DNA of 17,220 bases from a virus (lineage: Duplodnaviria; Heunggongvirae; Uroviricota; Caudoviricetes), in IMG/VR virus record IMGVR_UViG_2609460354_000003; one strand, 5' to 3'. The position numbers were made by a program, and so were the translations under genes. How positions within the stretch are numbered: the stretch's first letter is position 1; each line of letters begins with the position of its first letter. Shown piece after piece: positions 1,018-16,557 of the stretch. The notes beneath the pieces were generated by a model that saw only the letters and a list, made by a program, of their open reading frames with translations, did no database searches and was not told the origin of the DNA.

Positions 1018-2064
1018 TTACCCAAGCACGCCAGTTGCAAAGGCGTGATCAAGAAAACGAAAAATTAAATCAACCTGAGAACCATGCTTTTCTTCGAACG
1101 CCAGAGGATCCGCATGAAGCTCGTTGTGATGCTCCCGACACAGCGGTAGCGTGAAAATATCGTGAGATTTTGTCCCCATTCCGCCCTGACCATGACCAAT
1201 CAGGTGATGGGGATCGTCGGCTGGCTTACCACAACACGCACACGGCTGTGTCTTCACCCAGCGTGTGTATTTCTCGTTAACCCAGCGGCGACGTTTAGGT
1301 CGTTTCATGAAAGATTCCGGAGACTCAGGATCAACGGCAATGCTGACCACCGTCTCTTCCTGTGGCGGGGTTTGCTGGTGGGCGTGAGGCAGCGGCGCAA
1401 GATTTTTTGTGCGCTGCTTCAGTATGCTGGTGGCGGTCTGCTCTCCCGGTACGATGTCGCTTTCACGGTACATTGAGCGGATTTTTTCCGCACGCAACCC
1501 CAGCGAACGACGTAATACCGCTTCCGGTAGCGCGTCCGCCACCTGATTGCGGACCGCCCACCAGGATAATTCAGCCAGCGATAATTCCCGTTCCTGCGAG
1601 CCATTCATTGCATGGCGTATGACGTCAATCATCCATGCAGACAGGTTTTGGTGAGCAAGTTGCCCGAGTGATTCGGAGGTCTGGTCGCGCAGCTGGTTGT
1701 CGCAGTGCCAGCACAACACCATTGCGCCGGTACCATAACGGTGAATGACGGTTTCACTGTGGTGATAATCGCCGTGTGGCCACTGGCAGGATTTAACATG
1801 GCGCAGTAACCAGTCAGACAATGCGCCAGCGCCACCAGCAGCACGAATCACTCGTTCGTCGCTGAAAAATGGCAGTAATGATTTATCCTCCGCCAGCGGC
1901 TGGCGAACGGCAGGAACGACCCCGGACGGCAGATTACGCATGCTTTTCGGTTCCGGCTCCACCAGTACCCGGGTATTGTGGAATACCGGCATGGATTCAC
2001 GGCCCGGCTTAACGATCACCAGCCCGAGTTCCGGTACCAGAACAGGTCGAAGTAATACCCGCAC
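1018..2064 (-). CDS. DUF968-like phage protein with C-terminal HNH-like Cys/His motif (YdfU-like)
   Basis: 348-aa ORF with GTG start preceded by GGAGG. C-terminus CACCGKPADDPHHLIGHG...CREHHNELH resembles an HNH zinc motif. Family name from memory. Confidence 0.55.
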   Translation of the reverse strand: MRVLLRPVLVPELGLVIVKPGRESMPVFHNTRVLVEPEPKSMRNLPSGVVPAVRQPLAEDKSLLPFFSDERVIRAAGGAGALSDWLLRHVKSCQWPHGDYHHSETVIHRYGTGAMVLCWHCDNQLRDQTSESLGQLAHQNLSAWMIDVIRHAMNGSQERELSLAELSWWAVRNQVADALPEAVLRRSLGLRAEKIRSMYRESDIVPGEQTATSILKQRTKNLAPLPHAHQQTPPQEETVVSIAVDPESPESFMKRPKRRRWVNEKYTRWVKTQPCACCGKPADDPHHLIGHGQGGMGTKSHDIFTLPLCREHHNELHADPLAFEEKHGSQVDLIFRFLDHAFATGVLG

Positions 2065-5683: not shown

Positions 5684-6433
5684 TCACTCTCCTTTGATGC
5701 GAATGCCAGCGGCGCGGATTGCAGCGATGACTTCAGAAACTTTGTATGCCATTACCGTTTGGTAATCATCGTGAAAATCTGTTCGATGAAGCATGCTGCT
5801 ACGTTCCGGGAGCGATATTTCCCGAGCATCCAGTTCCTTAACGCGTTCCTCCAGTTCGTAGACCCTGCATTGTTCTCTATCATCAATCAGATATAACCCA
5901 AGACATTCGCTTTCTACCCAACCGCCAAAATCATGATCGTAACGCTCACATGAAAACTCACCGTCACCGTCCTTTGTTGGAATGGTGTAACTATCTAATG
6001 GGCCACCATATGTCGGCACATTCCCCAATGTTGGATGCTCAATCCACATGAAAAATGCACGTCCGGTTATTGGGCAAATATCTGGCCGCCATTGGTTACG
6101 AACAGCCTTGGTTTCGGATAATTCTTCAGCGTGTTGTTTTACTTCCTCAAGCTCAACTCTCAGCTTCCCTACCGTTAGCGCAATATCCTCGTTCTCCTGG
6201 TCGCGGCGTTTGATGTATTGCTGGTTCCTTTCCCGTTCATCCAGTAGTGCCAGCACGGTTTCTGGTCCGGTCAGAAATTTGAAGGCATTGAGCGCATCAA
6301 TATCCACACCGTAATCTTTAAGTTCCTGTTCACTTAACAAATCATCATCAGTTGGCAACATTAACAGGCGTTCCATTGCTGGAATTGCACGTTCTGCTGC
6401 CTCACGCAGTGCCTGGTAATTAATTTCGCTCAC
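5684..6433 (-). CDS. Ead/Ea22-like early-region protein (249 aa)
   Basis: N-terminus MSEINYQALREAAERA, acidic coiled-coil middle, position in early-left b-region. Family assigned from memory. Confidence 0.6.
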   Translation of the reverse strand: MSEINYQALREAAERAIPAMERLLMLPTDDDLLSEQELKDYGVDIDALNAFKFLTGPETVLALLDERERNQQYIKRRDQENEDIALTVGKLRVELEEVKQHAEELSETKAVRNQWRPDICPITGRAFFMWIEHPTLGNVPTYGGPLDSYTIPTKDGDGEFSCERYDHDFGGWVESECLGLYLIDDREQCRVYELEERVKELDAREISLPERSSMLHRTDFHDDYQTVMAYKVSEVIAAIRAAGIRIKGE

Positions 6434-6873
6434 TGGTTGCCTCCTTTGCGAAGCTCTGCGGCTAAATACTCCAACGCCATTACCGGGACGCCAACAAGCA
6501 CAGTTCCTTTAAACTTCTTATGCAGGTGCTCGATAGCTGTATCCACGCCCTGCGCCCGTACTTCAGCCAGGAAAGCATCGGTGGCCGGAGTTTCAGGAAT
6601 CCGTCTCCTCATCAGTTCTATTGCATGATTGAACCCGAAATCTTCAGCAAGAGATACGTCATCCATATTGTCATTGTCGTCCTCAATATCCCGTGGTTCT
6701 GGAATTGCAGACTTTATTACCGCATTCTCCGCCGCCAGCGCCGCGCACTTGGCCTCAAGAGCGGCAACCACTTCCTGATGGTCTTTGTACTTAACGTATG
6801 AGCCGGAGATGTCATCACCTTCGGTGTTTAGCCATGCGTCATTGCAATTCACTGCGTAGGTTCTGATGCTCAT
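6430..6873 (-). CDS. Hypothetical early-region protein (147 aa from ATG 6873)
   Basis: ATG 6873 has GGGAGAG SD and ATGA coupling to upstream ORF. Acidic segment EDDNDNMDD. Confidence 0.5.
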   Translation of the reverse strand: MSIRTYAVNCNDAWLNTEGDDISGSYVKYKDHQEVVAALEAKCAALAAENAVIKSAIPEPRDIEDDNDNMDDVSLAEDFGFNHAIELMRRRIPETPATDAFLAEVRAQGVDTAIEHLHKKFKGTVLVGVPVMALEYLAAELRKGGNQ

Positions 6874-7055
6874 GTTGATGCTCTCCCGCCCCTGACAGAC
6901 GCCAGGCCAGTCAATAAAGTATCCGCACAATGCCTACCCTCAGACGTGCGCGCAGGATAAATGCCGTTATGACCCGGCAAAATATATGCTACCCATTCAT
7001 CTTGCGTTGCCTGTTCCGCCGCCTCACGCAGTGCCTGAGAGTTAATTTCGCTCAC
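6870..7055 (-). pseudogene. Ead-like N-terminal fragment (61-aa ORF), probable recombination remnant
   Basis: First 16 aa MSEINSQALREAAEQA parallel the N-terminus of 5684..6433. Its 5' DNA (7021-7055) is a near repeat of 6399-6433. The rest of the ORF has no protein-like character. Confidence 0.3.
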
Positions 7056-7663: not shown

Positions 7664-8221
7664 TCATGCAGCCTCCCGACGGGCAAGAATCCTTGAGCCG
7701 AACGCCATCAACTCTCCACGATCAACGGTCGTAAAGTGGCAGTGTGTACGGGGGTATGGGTGCCAGATAATGAGCATCGAGCCTTTATTATTTCCACTGA
7801 CGGGTTTCTCAGTGAGTGGGTTAATAAATGCCAGTCGTCCTGCCGTGATGAATCTGACCTCACTGGCGGTTTGTATCGCTTCATGAAACCATCCGACAGA
7901 TGTGTCAGCAGGCAATAACATTACACATCCCACACTACTGAATTTGTTTTCAGTGGCTGCCTTTTTCACAAAAGGGGAAATATTGCTGTATGGTGGATTC
8001 AACCAGACATAACCAGAGGCATATCCCATTGCTTCAGGCCATGAAGTGGTTAATGTGTTCTGCTCCTGTGAGATAAAAAGCCGACATAGTCGGTTTTTTT
8101 CGCTGGCGGCAGCATCAAGTTGAAAAACGAACTCTGCATTAAGCGCAGCAAAAATCTCTGGTGGTGTGCGCCAGCTGTCGCGATGTTCGGCAGGAGTATT
8201 GCTTCCGGTGAAATCAGTCAT
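7664..8221 (-). CDS. Phage DNA N6-adenine methyltransferase (Dam-like, orphan)
   Basis: WRTPPEIF...FQLDAAAS and NPPY motifs. No restriction endonuclease candidate nearby. Confidence 0.85.
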   Translation of the reverse strand: MTDFTGSNTPAEHRDSWRTPPEIFAALNAEFVFQLDAAASEKNRLCRLFISQEQNTLTTSWPEAMGYASGYVWLNPPYSNISPFVKKAATENKFSSVGCVMLLPADTSVGWFHEAIQTASEVRFITAGRLAFINPLTEKPVSGNNKGSMLIIWHPYPRTHCHFTTVDRGELMAFGSRILARREAA

Positions 8222-10211: not shown

Positions 10212-10622
10212 TTAGTGATTTAGGCCGTTGCCGCGTCCGTCGAGAAAAACTTCCACGAGCAAATCACGGGTATAAGTGCGCTCGATGCCGCGATGCAGAT
10301 ATAGCCGTCCGCGTAAATTAGCTGATGCAGTCCAGGTACCATCTTTGTGTTTGACCAGCATTCCTGGCATGACCGCACCGCGATTAACGGTCTGCGTTCC
10401 GTAATGTTGATGAACCATAAAAACTCCTGCCCGTAAGCTGGGCTGCTGAACATATATAGACTTCTGCGCGTATTCAGGCGGTGGATGGCCGCCGGTTGTC
10501 ATAACTAAGCCGCCTCGTTGAAGCGACTGAGGTATGAAGTGTTGAGTTGATTTCAGCTGGTCACACCGACGTTCACGCGTCCGCTTCACCCCTCGCACTC
10601 CCCGGAGCCTGCTGAAATTCAA
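10212..10622 (-). CDS. Hypothetical protein in the N position (first gene after PL); possible N-like antiterminator if started at upstream TTG/GTG, otherwise 96 aa from ATG 10502
   Basis: With the TTG start the N-terminus is Arg-rich ([15 protein letters not shown]), reminiscent of N arginine-rich motifs. First ATG is at 10502 with a GAGG SD. No clear boxA/boxB seen. Confidence 0.35.
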
Positions 10623-10689
10623 GCTGCGGATCTAAGCGGTCATCGCAACGGTGAATCAGGTGGTTGCCGTATCGTTGTGTTGTTGCGAC

Positions 10690-10745
10690 ATGGTGATAAT
10701 AGCTATTGCTATTGATGATATCAATACTTATTGCTATTGCTAGAT
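10690..10745 (-). promoter_or_regulatory. OL/PL-like region: leftward promoter with repressor operator repeats
   Basis: Minus strand -35 TTGATA (plus 10717-10722), 17-nt spacer, -10 TATTAT (plus 10694-10699). Repeated TTGCTATTG-type motifs at about 10699-10712 and 10727-10741 also occur in OR. Confidence 0.5.
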
Positions 10746-10870
10746 GTGTTTTGATATTAAATATTTGATAGCAAAAAGAATTAATTTTGTGACTTGCATC
10801 GCATAGCGATAACTGAAGCGGGGTTGTGGTGGTTTTTTGAACGGTGTGTGCGATGAGGGGAGGGCAAAAG

Positions 10871-10892
10871 AAAACCCGGCACGGTGGCCGGG
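10871..10892 (-). terminator. Rho-independent terminator ending the cI-side accessory locus
   Basis: Minus strand CCCGGC-cac...-GCCGGG hairpin followed by TTTTCTTTTG, right after the stop of the 283-aa gene. Confidence 0.6.
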
Positions 10893-10899
10893 TCTGAAC

Positions 10900-11751
10900 T
10901 TACTGAATTTTCCTGAAAATCACAAGAGGAGTCATTCCGTATGCGGTGCTACTGCGGCCTGCTAATTCTTTTATCCCAGAAAGCATTTCTGTTATGCCAT
11001 CTTTCAAAGGGTTTGACGGGAACACAGACATATCGAAAAGTTCTTGGTCATATTCAGGAAGGGCATCGATAAAACCAAGTACGTACCATTCGCCTGGAAT
11101 ACTCCCACCATATTTTAGAACCATATCGTCTGGATTAATGGTGAGGTAATCACGATTAATAGTCATCCAAATGGTTTGACCAAAATCATTAATAAAATCA
11201 ACCTGCAATGTGTTCGGGACAATATTAAGTACTTCTTTCATCATGCCAAAAGTGACACCGGGCGAGACGGGGATTTCGTCAATACTATCATTCGTTTTTT
11301 TTGCTTTTGGCGGTAGCTTGGAGCGTTCTGCCTTTAGCATTTTTGCTACAAACGGGACGCTTTTTTGAAACATGGAAATATCAAAAATACGAACATGGCC
11401 TTTAGATAAAACAGTACTCCCAAGTCTTTCACCATTAAGTTCTGTTTTTATTAGATCATTTTCAGAAAGTTTATCTAAGAGGTTAATAGGAAGCGTCCAT
11501 GAAGCATCATAGCTTTTTTCATGGGTGTAATTGATAGTTTCCTCAACACCAAGTTTTGACTTAATGATTTTAATGTCAAAGCCGGCATCACTTACTGATT
11601 TGTCAACTTCAGCTGTTACCTGTCTGATAGATGTTATTACACCAGGCCCATGCATCTGTGCCAAGAGCGATGATGCCCGCTTGTTATCAACATATAGAAA
11701 ATCATACAATGAATCGGTGGTTTGTGATTCTTGCGCCGCGGATACGGTCAT
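10900..11751 (-). CDS. Unknown 283-aa protein in the cI-downstream (rex-like) position
   Basis: Complete ORF with AAGGAAGAG SD 7 nt before ATG 11751. AT-rich relative to neighbours. Same strand as cI, followed by a terminator. No motif recognised. Confidence 0.7.
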   Translation of the reverse strand: MTVSAAQESQTTDSLYDFLYVDNKRASSLLAQMHGPGVITSIRQVTAEVDKSVSDAGFDIKIIKSKLGVEETINYTHEKSYDASWTLPINLLDKLSENDLIKTELNGERLGSTVLSKGHVRIFDISMFQKSVPFVAKMLKAERSKLPPKAKKTNDSIDEIPVSPGVTFGMMKEVLNIVPNTLQVDFINDFGQTIWMTINRDYLTINPDDMVLKYGGSIPGEWYVLGFIDALPEYDQELFDMSVFPSNPLKDGITEMLSGIKELAGRSSTAYGMTPLVIFRKIQ

Positions 11752-12057
11752 TCTTTATCTCTTCCTTCTTTTCGGCAATTTCATTTTGTTTTTTCTTTAT
11801 TTCGTCAATAACTTCCTGAACCTCTGCATCAGTGGCCCTGGGGGGTTTAGATTCAATAATTTTTAATAATTTGCGAATCATGACGAAATCTCTTGAAAAT
11901 ATGCCTTGGTTAAATTATGCACTCACACGGAGGCGATATCAACAGGGCATAAAATGCAATCATAAAAAACACATAAAATTCAAAGCATTAATAAATTAAA
12001 GGGCTGAGGTTTAACTCGTCTGTAATGGCCTTCTAAGGCTAAAATATGAGCATTAAA

Positions 12058-12750
12058 TCAACCATGCTTCCTGTACGTCTGCGGCATGCTCCCGATGACT
12101 TTCCCGAAAATGAATACCCGGTTCATCTCGTCTTTCTCGATCGGGTCCCACGGTGAGTAACTCTTGTTATCAGAGATAACGAGCAGCTTATCCTTCATCA
12201 TTTGCAGGCGCTTTACATGGGCTGTGTCGTCATACAGAAACGCATAGATACCATCACCGTCGAAAGATTTAACCGTGATATCAACGAACAGCAGATCACC
12301 TGGTTCGATCGTTCCTGACATGCTGTCACCGCGTACGTTAATAATGCGGATATTTTCTGCCTTCCTACCATCGAACATGTGACGAGCATCGTCAAACGAG
12401 TACTCAACCGAACGTAGAACTTCTACAAACTCACGGTTGATGACTCCCGGCCCGGCACTGACTTCTATATCAAGAACGTCAATTTTGAAGTATTTGGAAT
12501 GGCTGACAGCAGGCTTCCCTGATTGTTGACCGTCATTTCTCATCGGGCCTATGCCTGATGAGAGCCATTCTGTTCGAACACCCAATGCATTAGCTATTTC
12601 AACAATTTTTGTTGAGCCGCGCGCGTTGCCGCTTGTCAGTCTCCAGATTGTGGGTTGAGCTACGCCAGACGCCTTTGCAAGAGCGCCTTGAGACATTCCA
12701 GATTGTTCCATCGCTAGGTTTAAGCGATCAGCAAGAGTTTCTTTTTTCAT
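12058..12750 (-). CDS. cI: CI-type prophage repressor (N-terminal HTH, C-terminal S24 LexA-like autopeptidase)
   Basis: HTH segment SQGALAKASGVAQPTIWRL; S24 features GDSMSGTIEPGD and a downstream Lys (HVKRL). Start set at ATG 12750 because the TTG at 12786 falls in the -35 of the predicted promoter. Confidence 0.88.
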   Translation of the reverse strand: MKKETLADRLNLAMEQSGMSQGALAKASGVAQPTIWRLTSGNARGSTKIVEIANALGVRTEWLSSGIGPMRNDGQQSGKPAVSHSKYFKIDVLDIEVSAGPGVINREFVEVLRSVEYSFDDARHMFDGRKAENIRIINVRGDSMSGTIEPGDLLFVDITVKSFDGDGIYAFLYDDTAHVKRLQMMKDKLLVISDNKSYSPWDPIEKDEMNRVFIFGKVIGSMPQTYRKHG

Positions 12751-12860
12751 AAGTTTTAATTTATACGCTTGCGTATTGATGGTCAAAACACGTTTTGCTA
12801 TTGCTTGGATTAATACGCATTGCTATTATTCATTCATTGCAATACCAATAGGAATTGATA
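12751..12860. promoter_or_regulatory. OR-like divergent promoter/operator region (PRM-like leftward, PR-like rightward)
   Basis: Minus strand TTGACC (12781-12786), 15-16 nt spacer, TATAAA (12760-12765), ending 8-9 nt before the cI ATG, implying a leaderless or near-leaderless cI mRNA. Plus strand TTGCTT (12801-12806), 17 nt, TATTAT (12824-12829). Three ATTGCTATT/ATTGCAAT operator-like motifs between 12796 and 12845. Confidence 0.6.
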
Positions 12861-13088
12861 ATGACAAATCAAACCATTCAACTCGCAATCAGTATTACAG
12901 GTAGTCAAAAACGACTGGCAGATCTATGCGGTGTAGCCCAACCCACAGTTTGGCGTTGGCTACACGGTGGCGGAATTGATGCCCGCTATGTAATGAAAAT
13001 TGTCTCAGCCACTGGTGGAAAGATTAAACCAGCAGATATTCGTCCCGACCTCGCACCATTGTTTAACGCGAGTAATTCTGCCGCCTAA
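12861..13088 (+). CDS. cro: Cro-like HTH regulator (75 aa)
   Basis: ATG 12861 with AGGAA SD. HTH segment QKRLADLCGVAQPTVWRWL. Divergent from cI across the operator region. Confidence 0.7.
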   Translation: MTNQTIQLAISITGSQKRLADLCGVAQPTVWRWLHGGGIDARYVMKIVSATGGKIKPADIRPDLAPLFNASNSAA

Positions 13089-15742: not shown

Positions 15743-16141
15743 TTATTTGTTCTGTTTTTTCTTGCGGGTTATTCTGATTTGTTTTGATTTGATTTTTTCT
15801 GACAAAAGTAGGGAAAAAATATGTCGCAAGTACTTTCTGTCTTTACCTCCTAAATTACATTCTCTATCAAATGTTGCCATAGTTATGACCCCAGTTTTAT
15901 ATAGTGTTTCAGCAATTTTTCTGTAGTTTTTTTCTCGCAAAATTGAAGAGTTTTTCTTTGCTGTATTTTCAAGGCTATCTCCTTGTGGTTTAAGACCATT
16001 TGGGCCAAAAAACGTTGTGGATACTGCTGCACTTGTTGTCCGTTTTTTTTGGCCCATTTGGATAGTACTTGGGAGAGGCATGATTTTAATACGCATATAA
16101 ATAACTCCTCTATCAATTGGATTTTGGGAAAATGTTAACAT
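15743..16141 (-). CDS. Unknown 132-aa protein translationally coupled to the Mnt-like repressor
   Basis: ATG 16141..16139 overlaps the repressor stop (TAATG). Lys-rich C-terminus. A competing 77-aa frame (15883..16116) exists, so frame choice is uncertain. Confidence 0.35.
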   Translation of the reverse strand: MLTFSQNPIDRGVIYMRIKIMPLPSTIQMGQKKRTTSAAVSTTFFGPNGLKPQGDSLENTAKKNSSILREKNYRKIAETLYKTGVITMATFDRECNLGGKDRKYLRHIFSLLLSEKIKSKQIRITRKKKQNK

Positions 16142-16458
16142 TAATCATGATTAAGGAGTAATTTTAAATCTTCCAATAAAATTTGTTTAAACTCTTGTGT
16201 TCTATGATCGATATACAACGCAAGTTTGCTTGCATTATCTTCCAGGTCACGTATCTCTCTGTCACCTCGAATAAACCCAACTAAATTTAAACGTTTAGAT
16301 AGTTCAGAACTTCCTTCTATGGCATCTTGGAGTATTTGAATGATTTCTGAATTCATTGAGCGCCCGTTTCGTTTGGCTCGTTCAGCTATAGCTTCACGCA
16401 TCCCATCAGGGAAACGGAGGTTAAACTTATCGTAGTCTTTTACTTGTTTGTCAGCCAT
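16141..16458 (-). CDS. mnt: Mnt-like ribbon-helix-helix repressor (Arc/MetJ superfamily)
   Basis: From ATG 16458: MADKQVKDYDKFNLRFPDGMREAIAERAKRNGRSMNSEIIQILQDAI... The core FNLRFP...NGRSMNSEIIQILQDAI closely parallels P22 Mnt as recalled, with a C-terminal extension as in Mnt. Confidence 0.72.
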   Translation of the reverse strand: MADKQVKDYDKFNLRFPDGMREAIAERAKRNGRSMNSEIIQILQDAIEGSSELSKRLNLVGFIRGDREIRDLEDNASKLALYIDHRTQEFKQILLEDLKLLLNHD

Positions 16459-16557
16459 TGGAACCCCCAAAAAAATGAATGGTGCCATATTGCCACATCA
16501 ATTCAATGGTGGCATTATGGCCTCATGGTGTCATTGTGGCCTCATGAGGTTATGTCA
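16459..16557. promoter_or_regulatory. Divergent promoter/operator region between Mnt-like and Arc-like genes
   Basis: Inverted repeat TGCCACAT...ATGGTGGCA (about 16491-16515), direct repeats ATTATGGCCTCATGG / ATTGTGGCCTCATGA, and the 10-bp palindrome CCTCATGAGG. Confidence 0.5.

Follow-up and report, generated by a model that had tools for sequence, protein, structure and literature searches.

Two sets of described systems provide the background for the genes reported here. Dodola, credited to Millman et al. 2022 as summarized in a 2024 survey (bioRxiv 10.1101/2024.10.26.620412), consists of a DUF6414 protein (DolA) and a ClpB-related protein (DolB) and is a validated defense system, protecting Bacillus subtilis against SPP1 and Streptococcus thermophilus and Lactococcus cremoris against several phages. 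The slot behind the prophage repressor is a hotspot housing the abortive-infection systems RexAB and BstA, and few transcripts in a lysogen are as abundant as that of the repressor (PMC8585504); in Gifsy-1, the defense gene for the ATPase GiPD474 likewise lies directly behind the repressor, in a mosaic hotspot extending from cI to N (PMC12724215). Here we describe a pair of overlapping genes in the slot between cI and the operator OL of an Escherichia coli lambdoid prophage, contained in a 17,220-nucleotide (nt) stretch of DNA (IMG/VR virus record IMGVR_UViG_2609460354_000003, Caudoviricetes; "the window"), to which all coordinates refer unless a locus is named. The pair encodes a protein of 59 amino acids (aa) and a DUF6414 protein of 283 aa and is a foreign, horizontally mobile two-gene cargo. 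With a probability of about 0.5, we read it as an antiphage or addiction module in which the DUF6414 protein serves as sensor or effector under the control of the small protein.

The closest relatives of the pair were found in E. coli prophages integrated beside tRNA-Thr/proA, in which RefSeq labels the products "DUF6414 family protein" and "hypothetical protein." The cargo genes are present in only 2 of 5,426 complete E. coli genomes; cI and the flanks match approximately 2,000. In the prophage of strain PM4, the repressor has the same accession as that of the window (WP_001295669.1), homology is limited to window positions 10400 to 10897 and 12054 to 12900, with flanks 95 to 96% identical, and a different gene of 126 aa (L133, 3200 to 3580) is found where the window has 10898 to 12053. 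Because flank identity to PM4 ends at 10897 and 12054, these positions set the limits of the cargo. The alternative cargo is annotated "BamD/BamE" and has no PADLOC match; among the approximately 2,000 E. coli genomes with the same cI and flanks, those examined carry this 126-aa gene. The cI-to-OL slot of these prophages is thus a cargo-exchange hotspot. The features of the locus are as follows.

10898 to 12053, minus strand: cargo segment (moron) of promoter, small open reading frame (ORF) and DUF6414 ORF, delimited by the homology breaks against E. coli PM4; GC content, 38.1%.
10900 to 11751, minus strand: 283-aa DUF6414 ORF, from the ORF call, PF19952 and PHROG 9699.
11702 to 11881, minus strand: 59-aa ORF, from the ORF call, PHROG 29688, the ratio of nonsynonymous to synonymous substitution (dN/dS) and the G-A-R codons.
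11914 to 11942, minus strand: sigma-70-type cassette promoter TTGATA-17-CATAAT, from its consensus match and its footprint across cassettes.
10872 to 10895, minus strand: intrinsic terminator, from hairpin, T-tract and fold energy, inside the flank common to PM4.
12058 to 12750, minus strand: cI-type repressor with HTH_3 and Peptidase_S24 domains, from ORF and Pfam, directly upstream of the cargo.
10696 to 10739, minus strand: OL/PL, three CAATAGCAATA-like operator sites overlapping the leftward promoter TTGATA-17-TATTAT, from a motif scan.
12793 to 12856, no strand assigned: OR, four operator-like sites (the same CAATAGCAATA motif) between cI and cro, from a motif scan.

The initial annotation of this DNA, made from its letters alone, had placed a 283-aa ORF in the slot equivalent to that of rexAB, and both the ORF and the slot were confirmed, the latter by the positions of cI, the operator clusters and the PL-like promoter. 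The operator-like sites on the OL side are grouped at 10698 to 10739, with the PL-like promoter at 10724 to 10696, and the cargo lies between cI and OL/PL in a RexAB-type position, all on the minus strand. The gene had also been called markedly AT rich. Its GC content is 39.4%, and that of the 1.16-kb cargo is 38.1%, versus 47.6% for cI, 50.2% for gam and 51.9% for bet (gam, bet and exo lie at 50 to 53%); at third codon positions the GC fraction of the DUF6414 ORF is 0.35, versus 0.49 and 0.56 in the genes compared. With its presence/absence polymorphism, deviant GC content (38% versus 48 to 52%) and own promoter, the cargo is a phage moron in the sense of Hendrix and Juhala, except that its terminator is provided by the backbone. 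The hairpin (10895 to 10872, followed by TCTTTTGCCC) starts 4 nt past the DUF6414 stop codon and folds at -18.4 kcal/mol (z = -4.3; equaled by 0 of 200 shuffled sequences). The terminator at which the ORF was initially said to end is therefore real; it lies outside the cassette, since the DNA around it is backbone common to phages with different cargo. It probably ends the transcript of both cI and the cargo, and the OL operator cluster follows approximately 130 nt beyond it.

The promoter TTGATA-17-CATAAT (11942 to 11914) had been located exactly by the initial annotation and matches 10 of 12 consensus positions. Promoter-like sites number 7 in the region against 5.9 expected by chance, so one match by itself does not exceed chance expectation. 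In an alignment of eight cassettes with seven distinct sequences (six from homologous cassettes and that of the window) and different repressors upstream, TTG, the 17-nt spacer and CATA.T are invariant approximately 35 nt 5' of the small-ORF ATG, and the remaining upstream DNA does not align. By phylogenetic footprinting, the invariant TTG-17-CATA.T amid nonconserved DNA identifies a functional promoter, which accompanies the pair downstream of at least five different repressors. Read-through from the repressor promoter PRM, proposed at the outset, is plausible as well, because no terminator-like site was found by motif scan between the cI stop codon and the small ORF. From both sources, the pair would be expressed in the lysogen. 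The "strong" Shine-Dalgarno sequence first ascribed to the 283-aa gene was not upheld: only a purine-rich AAGGAAGAG is found, 8 to 16 nt upstream of the ATG. No Rfam RNA family was detected within the cassette.

A 59-aa ORF overlapping the 5' end of the large one had been raised as a possible second gene, and the comparison of homologues bears this out. Its predicted product is basic (pI 9.7), ends in the tail G-A-R-I-T-N-H-R-F-I-V and matches PHROG 29688 at 7e-36. In homologues at 75%, 62%, 52%, 38% and 29% identity, an ORF of 58 to 69 aa is always found 5' of DUF6414 with an overlap of 38 nt; in the window, the overlap is 50 nt, with DUF6414 in frame +1 with respect to the small ORF. In a census of 127 related loci, an upstream overlapping ORF with the tail pattern G[ASVT]R-x4-5-[FL]-x-[LIVF] was present in 86, representing 51 distinct sequences, and most of the other loci show looser versions of the tail. 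The range of the pair includes Enterobacteriaceae, Acinetobacter, Moraxella, Bordetella and Alphaproteobacteria.

Could the small ORF be a chance ORF, or could the two ORFs be one gene read by programmed frameshifting? They do overlap in different frames, and the small ORF is sometimes left unannotated (in loci L004 and L005 and in the GC-rich Bordetella phages, which also hold it). Either explanation is nevertheless highly improbable. Over the nonoverlapping codons 1 to 46, the proportion of nonsynonymous differences (pN) is lower than that of synonymous differences (pS) in every pair compared, with dN/dS mostly 0.1 to 0.5, and the ORF is open with its conserved tail in 51 distinct sequences. 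Within the overlap, the G-A-R codons, read in the small frame, are conserved at their first two positions and vary at the third; since this variable third position is position 2 of the DUF6414 codons, the selection at G-A-R is on the small protein. The 3' end of the overlap is dominated by DUF6414 codons for Tyr-Asp-Phe, of which Asp is invariant and Tyr and Phe are conservatively variable. The small-ORF stop is embedded in the DUF6414 codons TAT GAT (TA-TGA-T), and the geometry of the overlap is therefore locked at 38 nt. The DUF6414 gene has its own conserved ATG or GTG start, the Pfam model begins at residue 15, and a fusion would require a +1 shift and would delete conserved N-terminal residues; a programmed-frameshift fusion was rejected on the strength of these starts and of the codon-position evidence. 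The pattern of substitution thus indicates that the small ORF is a real gene under purifying selection and a conserved partner of DUF6414. Because the DUF6414 start lies inside the small ORF, translation of the two is probably coupled.

The 283-aa protein had first been considered novel, a view that did not survive profile hidden Markov model searching. It belongs to DUF6414 (Pfam PF19952; 38.1 bits versus a gathering cutoff of 25; E = 2e-9), with a match spanning residues 15 to 231 of 283 and model positions 1 to 222. It also matches PHROG 9699 at 3e-98, carries a RefSeq family name, and is of the family reported for DolA. Clustered at 90% identity, the close family forms 49 groups, most of them of Enterobacteriaceae origin, and 44 of the 49 carry a precomputed PF19952 assignment. 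A profile search returned 1,383 representatives at E <= 1e-3, the best 150 of which are 257 to 350 aa long, each matched as a single stretch; the family reaches soil and marine Alphaproteobacteria, Clostridium, Bordetella, Moraxella and Enterobacteriaceae. Among the invariant residues are D17, Y20, D22, Q32, D82, E97, D124, W195, D209, W222, D229, R266, Y271 and R280. The protein is acidic (pI 5.0), without cysteines, and its charge is complementary to that of the small protein. No match for it was found in NCBIfam or PADLOC, the latter not recognizing the small protein either, the PHROG matches of both proteins are to families of unknown function, and Pfam gives DUF6414 alone.

In agreement with the first reading of the sequence, no ATPase or nuclease signature was found by Pfam, and neither protein has a predicted transmembrane segment or signal peptide (19-residue hydropathy peaks at 1.04 in the 283-aa protein and at -0.31 in the 59-aa protein). 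Membrane-based superinfection exclusion was rejected on this ground, neither protein having a hydrophobic segment. The same observation bears on lysogenic conversion, in which the pair would affect the physiology of the host, for example its stress tolerance or virulence, and would have nothing to do with phages or with maintaining the element. Among the genes known from moron slots are bor, lom and sopE, and the alternative cargo of this very slot is annotated as BamD/BamE-like. Both proteins of the pair are predicted to be cytoplasmic, however, and the breadth of the family, from Alphaproteobacteria to Clostridium, disfavors a niche-specific host trait, so that we consider lysogenic conversion quite improbable.

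Structure searches gave no significant match. The AlphaFold2 model of the large protein, from a 35-sequence alignment, has a mean predicted local distance difference test score (pLDDT) of 73 and a predicted template modeling score of 0.68, with low confidence at residues 1 to 11 and 48 to 80. Foldseek found nothing significant for it in PDB or BFVD, and a profile search of PDB sequences found nothing. In residues 113 to 282, the order of strands and helices is compatible with the beta1-3, alpha, beta4-5 order of an OB fold, by our own assignment, the tool not reporting the aligned residues. The model is suggestive of a novel overall fold with a probable OB-like, presumably nucleic-acid-binding C-terminal half; through this domain, the DUF6414 protein would bind nucleic acid. 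The model of the small protein, from a single sequence (pLDDT 76), has helices at residues 2 to 10 and 18 to 58.

The pair was found in several genomic contexts. On viral contigs, 16 of 44 distinct upstream neighbors are HTH_3 proteins and 12 of the 44 carry Peptidase_S24, and the pair thus often lies directly behind a repressor. It follows at least five repressor types in lambda-like and Rac-like enterobacterial prophages and is similarly placed in Bordetella phages and in Clostridium phage HM T. Moron sites in the tail module or behind the tail fiber gene are occupied in Acinetobacter, Serratia and Moraxella Mcat17. In a sample of one genome per species, 11 of the 106 neighboring proteins are IS1595/ISXO2-like transposases, and 14 loci have the transposase gene as the immediate upstream neighbor, in the same orientation. 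Terminal inverted repeats (core TATATACGTGCTTGACC) bracket the transposase, the small ORF and DUF6414 in 10 loci, all from different species, so the pair is also an insertion sequence (IS) passenger. These elements, from Alphaproteobacteria and relatives, are approximately 2.0 to 2.1 kb long with inverted repeats of 23 to 33 nt and are arranged as left repeat, ISXO2-like DDE transposase, small ORF, DUF6414 and right repeat, the last abutting the DUF6414 stop codon. The alphaproteobacterial IS-borne homologues are 28 to 30% identical. IS1595-family insertion sequences reportedly include others with passenger genes, called "transporter IS" (a 2009 report by Siguier et al. is said to describe them). 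In the window, no transposase is present, and the inverted-repeat core has no match even with 4 mismatches allowed. The elements identified by their inverted repeats are as follows.

L013, 4876 to 6988: IS1595-family element with the pair.
L040, 3854 to 5931: IS1595-family element with the pair.
L050, 255 to 2306: IS1595-family element with the pair.
L026, L029, L034, L043, L045, L057 and L058: further IS1595-family elements with the pair.

Carriage by several unrelated kinds of mobile element, including a 2.1-kb insertion sequence in which a retention function would be selected, could point to pure addiction. A labile small protein would then neutralize a toxic DUF6414 protein and so stabilize prophages and IS1595 elements, without a dedicated antiphage role. 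The small upstream gene overlapping a larger one is the layout of type II toxin-antitoxin (TA) modules, and the complementary charges of the two proteins are in keeping with it. Against this, the small protein has no recognizable DNA-binding antitoxin domain in Pfam, PHROGs or NCBIfam, the DUF6414 protein matches no known toxin family or fold, and the preference for the repressor-downstream slot of abortive-infection systems favors defense. The distinction is also not a sharp one: this explanation overlaps with an antiphage or addiction module, many TA modules also defending against phages. Addiction without any antiphage role appears to us unlikely.

The compact IS arrangement of tnp, small ORF and DUF6414, with the right repeat directly at the stop codon, would fit an accessory factor in DNA transactions, for example, a helper binding single-stranded or branched DNA during IS1595 transposition and phage replication, recombination or integration. 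A putative OB-fold similarity, to RPA, Stn1/Ten1, the MCM N-terminal domain, RecG and ExoVII, points in the same direction. In phages, however, the pair lies outside recombination and replication operons, on the repressor transcript or at tail-module moron sites, under its own constitutive-type promoter and without an accompanying transposase, and it is dispensable, being absent from approximately 2,000 near-identical E. coli prophage immunity regions. A role of this kind is accordingly a distinctly remote prospect.

Membership in DUF6414 raises the question of how the pair relates to Dodola. No AAA+ neighbor is present in the window, where the neighbors are cI and the OL/kil region, or in the gene tables of at least 20 homologous loci; in a Walker A census, an ORF with a P loop was found within 2.5 kb in only 20 of the 127 loci and in no fixed position. 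A profile search started from Clostridium and distant members reached Clostridium relatives and a clade of 345- to 377-aa proteins without a genuine DolA-DolB locus, and a further search from that clade reached a Bacteroidota DUF6414 clade whose neighbors are not ClpB-like. The text of the Millman et al. preprint mentions neither Dodola nor DUF6414. The window protein is thus a member of the DUF6414 family but not a Dodola system.

The Bacteroidota members (L130 and L134 to L138) are 342 to 356 aa long and apparently standalone, their gene tables showing no ClpB-like neighbor and no upstream overlapping gene, although uncalled small ORFs were not scanned for. Distant DUF6414 proteins also occur beside defense-type genes (L131, 771 to 4122; L132, 325 to 3676; L118, 3220 to 5822; L013, 2103 to 3893), where the neighbors are a 645-aa AriA/OLD/GajA-like ATPase encoded immediately upstream in the same direction, a divergent IetA-like AAA protein and a PDC-S41 candidate. 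In other lineages, judging from these loci, DUF6414 may have various ATPases as partners. In a Vicinamibacteria metagenome-assembled genome (L061, 4944 to 7958), a 1,004-aa ORF joins the N-terminal approximately 230 residues of DUF6414 to the kinase-containing part of PglW (PADLOC PglW, 2.7e-224; Pfam Pkinase). Whether this ORF is a genuine fusion, reflects an insertion into pglW or is an artifact of assembly, the DUF6414 gene is within a Pgl/BREX-type defense locus.

Several observations weigh against an antiphage or addiction module related to Dodola. The Pfam match is modest at 38 bits, and the sequence link to DolA rests on the literature, namely, the 2024 survey. PADLOC should hold models for DolA. 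At E <= 1, PADLOC-DB 2.0.0 has no match for the window protein, and no DolA model in it matches any of 15 further DUF6414 proteins (0 of 16 in total). The nearest neighbors in the one-genome-per-species loci are mostly housekeeping genes or transposases, and defense matches among the 106 neighboring proteins are sparse and weakly informative. Carriage in insertion sequences fits a purely selfish addiction or a transposition-related role equally well.

In the lysogen, transcription of the pair probably starts at its own constitutive sigma-70 promoter and also continues from PRM through cI, and it would end at the backbone terminator. We infer complex formation from the opposite charges of the two proteins, from their obligate co-occurrence and from the selection on the C-terminal tail of the small one. 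In an antiphage or addiction module, the small protein would bind and control the DUF6414 protein through the conserved G-x-R...H-R-F tail, and the latter, with its OB-fold-like C-terminal half and invariant Asp, Glu, Arg and Trp residues, would act as sensor or effector. The balance of the two proteins would be upset when another phage infects or when the element is lost, and phage replication would then be blocked or the infection would become abortive. No ATPase would be needed, and the relation to DolA of Dodola would be a distant one. Any such defense phenotype is suggested by context. More tentatively still, the pair may represent a previously unrecognized, ATPase-independent immune or addiction module in which a new-fold protein with an OB-like domain senses DNA intermediates of phage or other foreign origin and is held in check by a partner of approximately 60 aa through the G-x-R...H-R-F tail. 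It would travel as cargo of temperate phages, in three slots, and of IS1595 elements across Proteobacteria and Clostridia and would be the minimal, ancestral-like core that in Dodola is coupled to a ClpB-like ATPase.

The family itself is already cataloged in Pfam, PHROGs and RefSeq and linked to Dodola. In the literature searched, the architecture of an ATPase-free small partner with DUF6414, its conserved promoter, its spread over phage slots and its role as an IS1595 passenger appear to be undescribed. A defense or addiction function would add a compact, ATPase-free system of approximately 1 kb to the known repertoire and would provide a tractable E. coli entry into DUF6414, the uncharacterized family of Dodola. 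One module circulates among repressor-slot phage cargo, tail-module cargo and a 2.1-kb insertion sequence, which raises the question of how an insertion sequence benefits from carrying it. Because current hidden Markov model sets (PADLOC 2.0.0) miss the pair, prophage defense inventories would overlook it.

Other parts of the window contain further candidate accessory genes. A full-length match to the sok antitoxin RNA (Rfam RF01794; 2641 to 2812, minus strand; 106.7 bits; E = 8.5e-24) indicates a putative hok/sok-type type I TA locus in an AT-rich stretch of the left arm of the prophage. Past ren, a second AT-rich gene pair (33 to 36% GC; 15743 to 16488, minus strand) consists of an Arc-like ribbon-helix-helix protein (16141 to 16488; PF03869, 6e-20) and, downstream of it, a 132-aa ORF (15743 to 16141), the first codon of which overlaps the stop codon of the Arc-like gene by one base (16141) and which has no Pfam or PADLOC match; this pair looks like another cargo or TA-like module. 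A 348-aa ORF (1018 to 2064, minus strand) is DUF968/HNHc-like and not an integrase, a Dam-type methyltransferase lies at 7664 to 8221, and two Ead/Ea22-like genes lie at 5684 to 6930. Between PL/OL and the kil-like gene (10454 to 10696), no N-like antiterminator is evident; the sole ORF in the PL/OL-kil interval (10212 to 10622) starts with TTG and matches no Pfam family; kil is the only gene annotated there in the related RefSeq record.

The window pair can be compared with five kinds of known system. With lambda RexAB it shares the slot, the repressor strand, the number of genes and, presumably, expression in the lysogen. In contrast to RexAB, it includes no RexB-like membrane protein and has no sequence or fold similarity to the Rex proteins; neither protein matches a Rex family in Pfam, PHROGs or NCBIfam. 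BstA of the Salmonella prophage BTP1, which has a KilA-N/DNA-binding type of architecture, and GiPD474 are likewise encoded by defense genes directly downstream of a prophage repressor but are single proteins, neither homologous to the window pair; as an identity for the window gene, GiPD474 was rejected, being an ATPase.

The pair resembles type II TA modules in its small upstream gene overlapping a larger one, in the complementary charge of its products and in its carriage by mobile elements, and it differs from them in having no known toxin or antitoxin domain in Pfam, PADLOC or NCBIfam and in its long overlap of 38 to 50 nt. As in the IS1595 transporter IS, homologous pairs are passengers beside a transposase between terminal inverted repeats, whereas in the window the pair is phage cargo. 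Like Dodola, it is a two-gene module, and its large protein falls in the Pfam family given for DolA. In place of the ClpB-like AAA+ partner of Dodola, however, the window module has a partner that is an overlapping, predicted helical protein of approximately 60 aa, and modules of this type are carried by prophages and insertion sequences.

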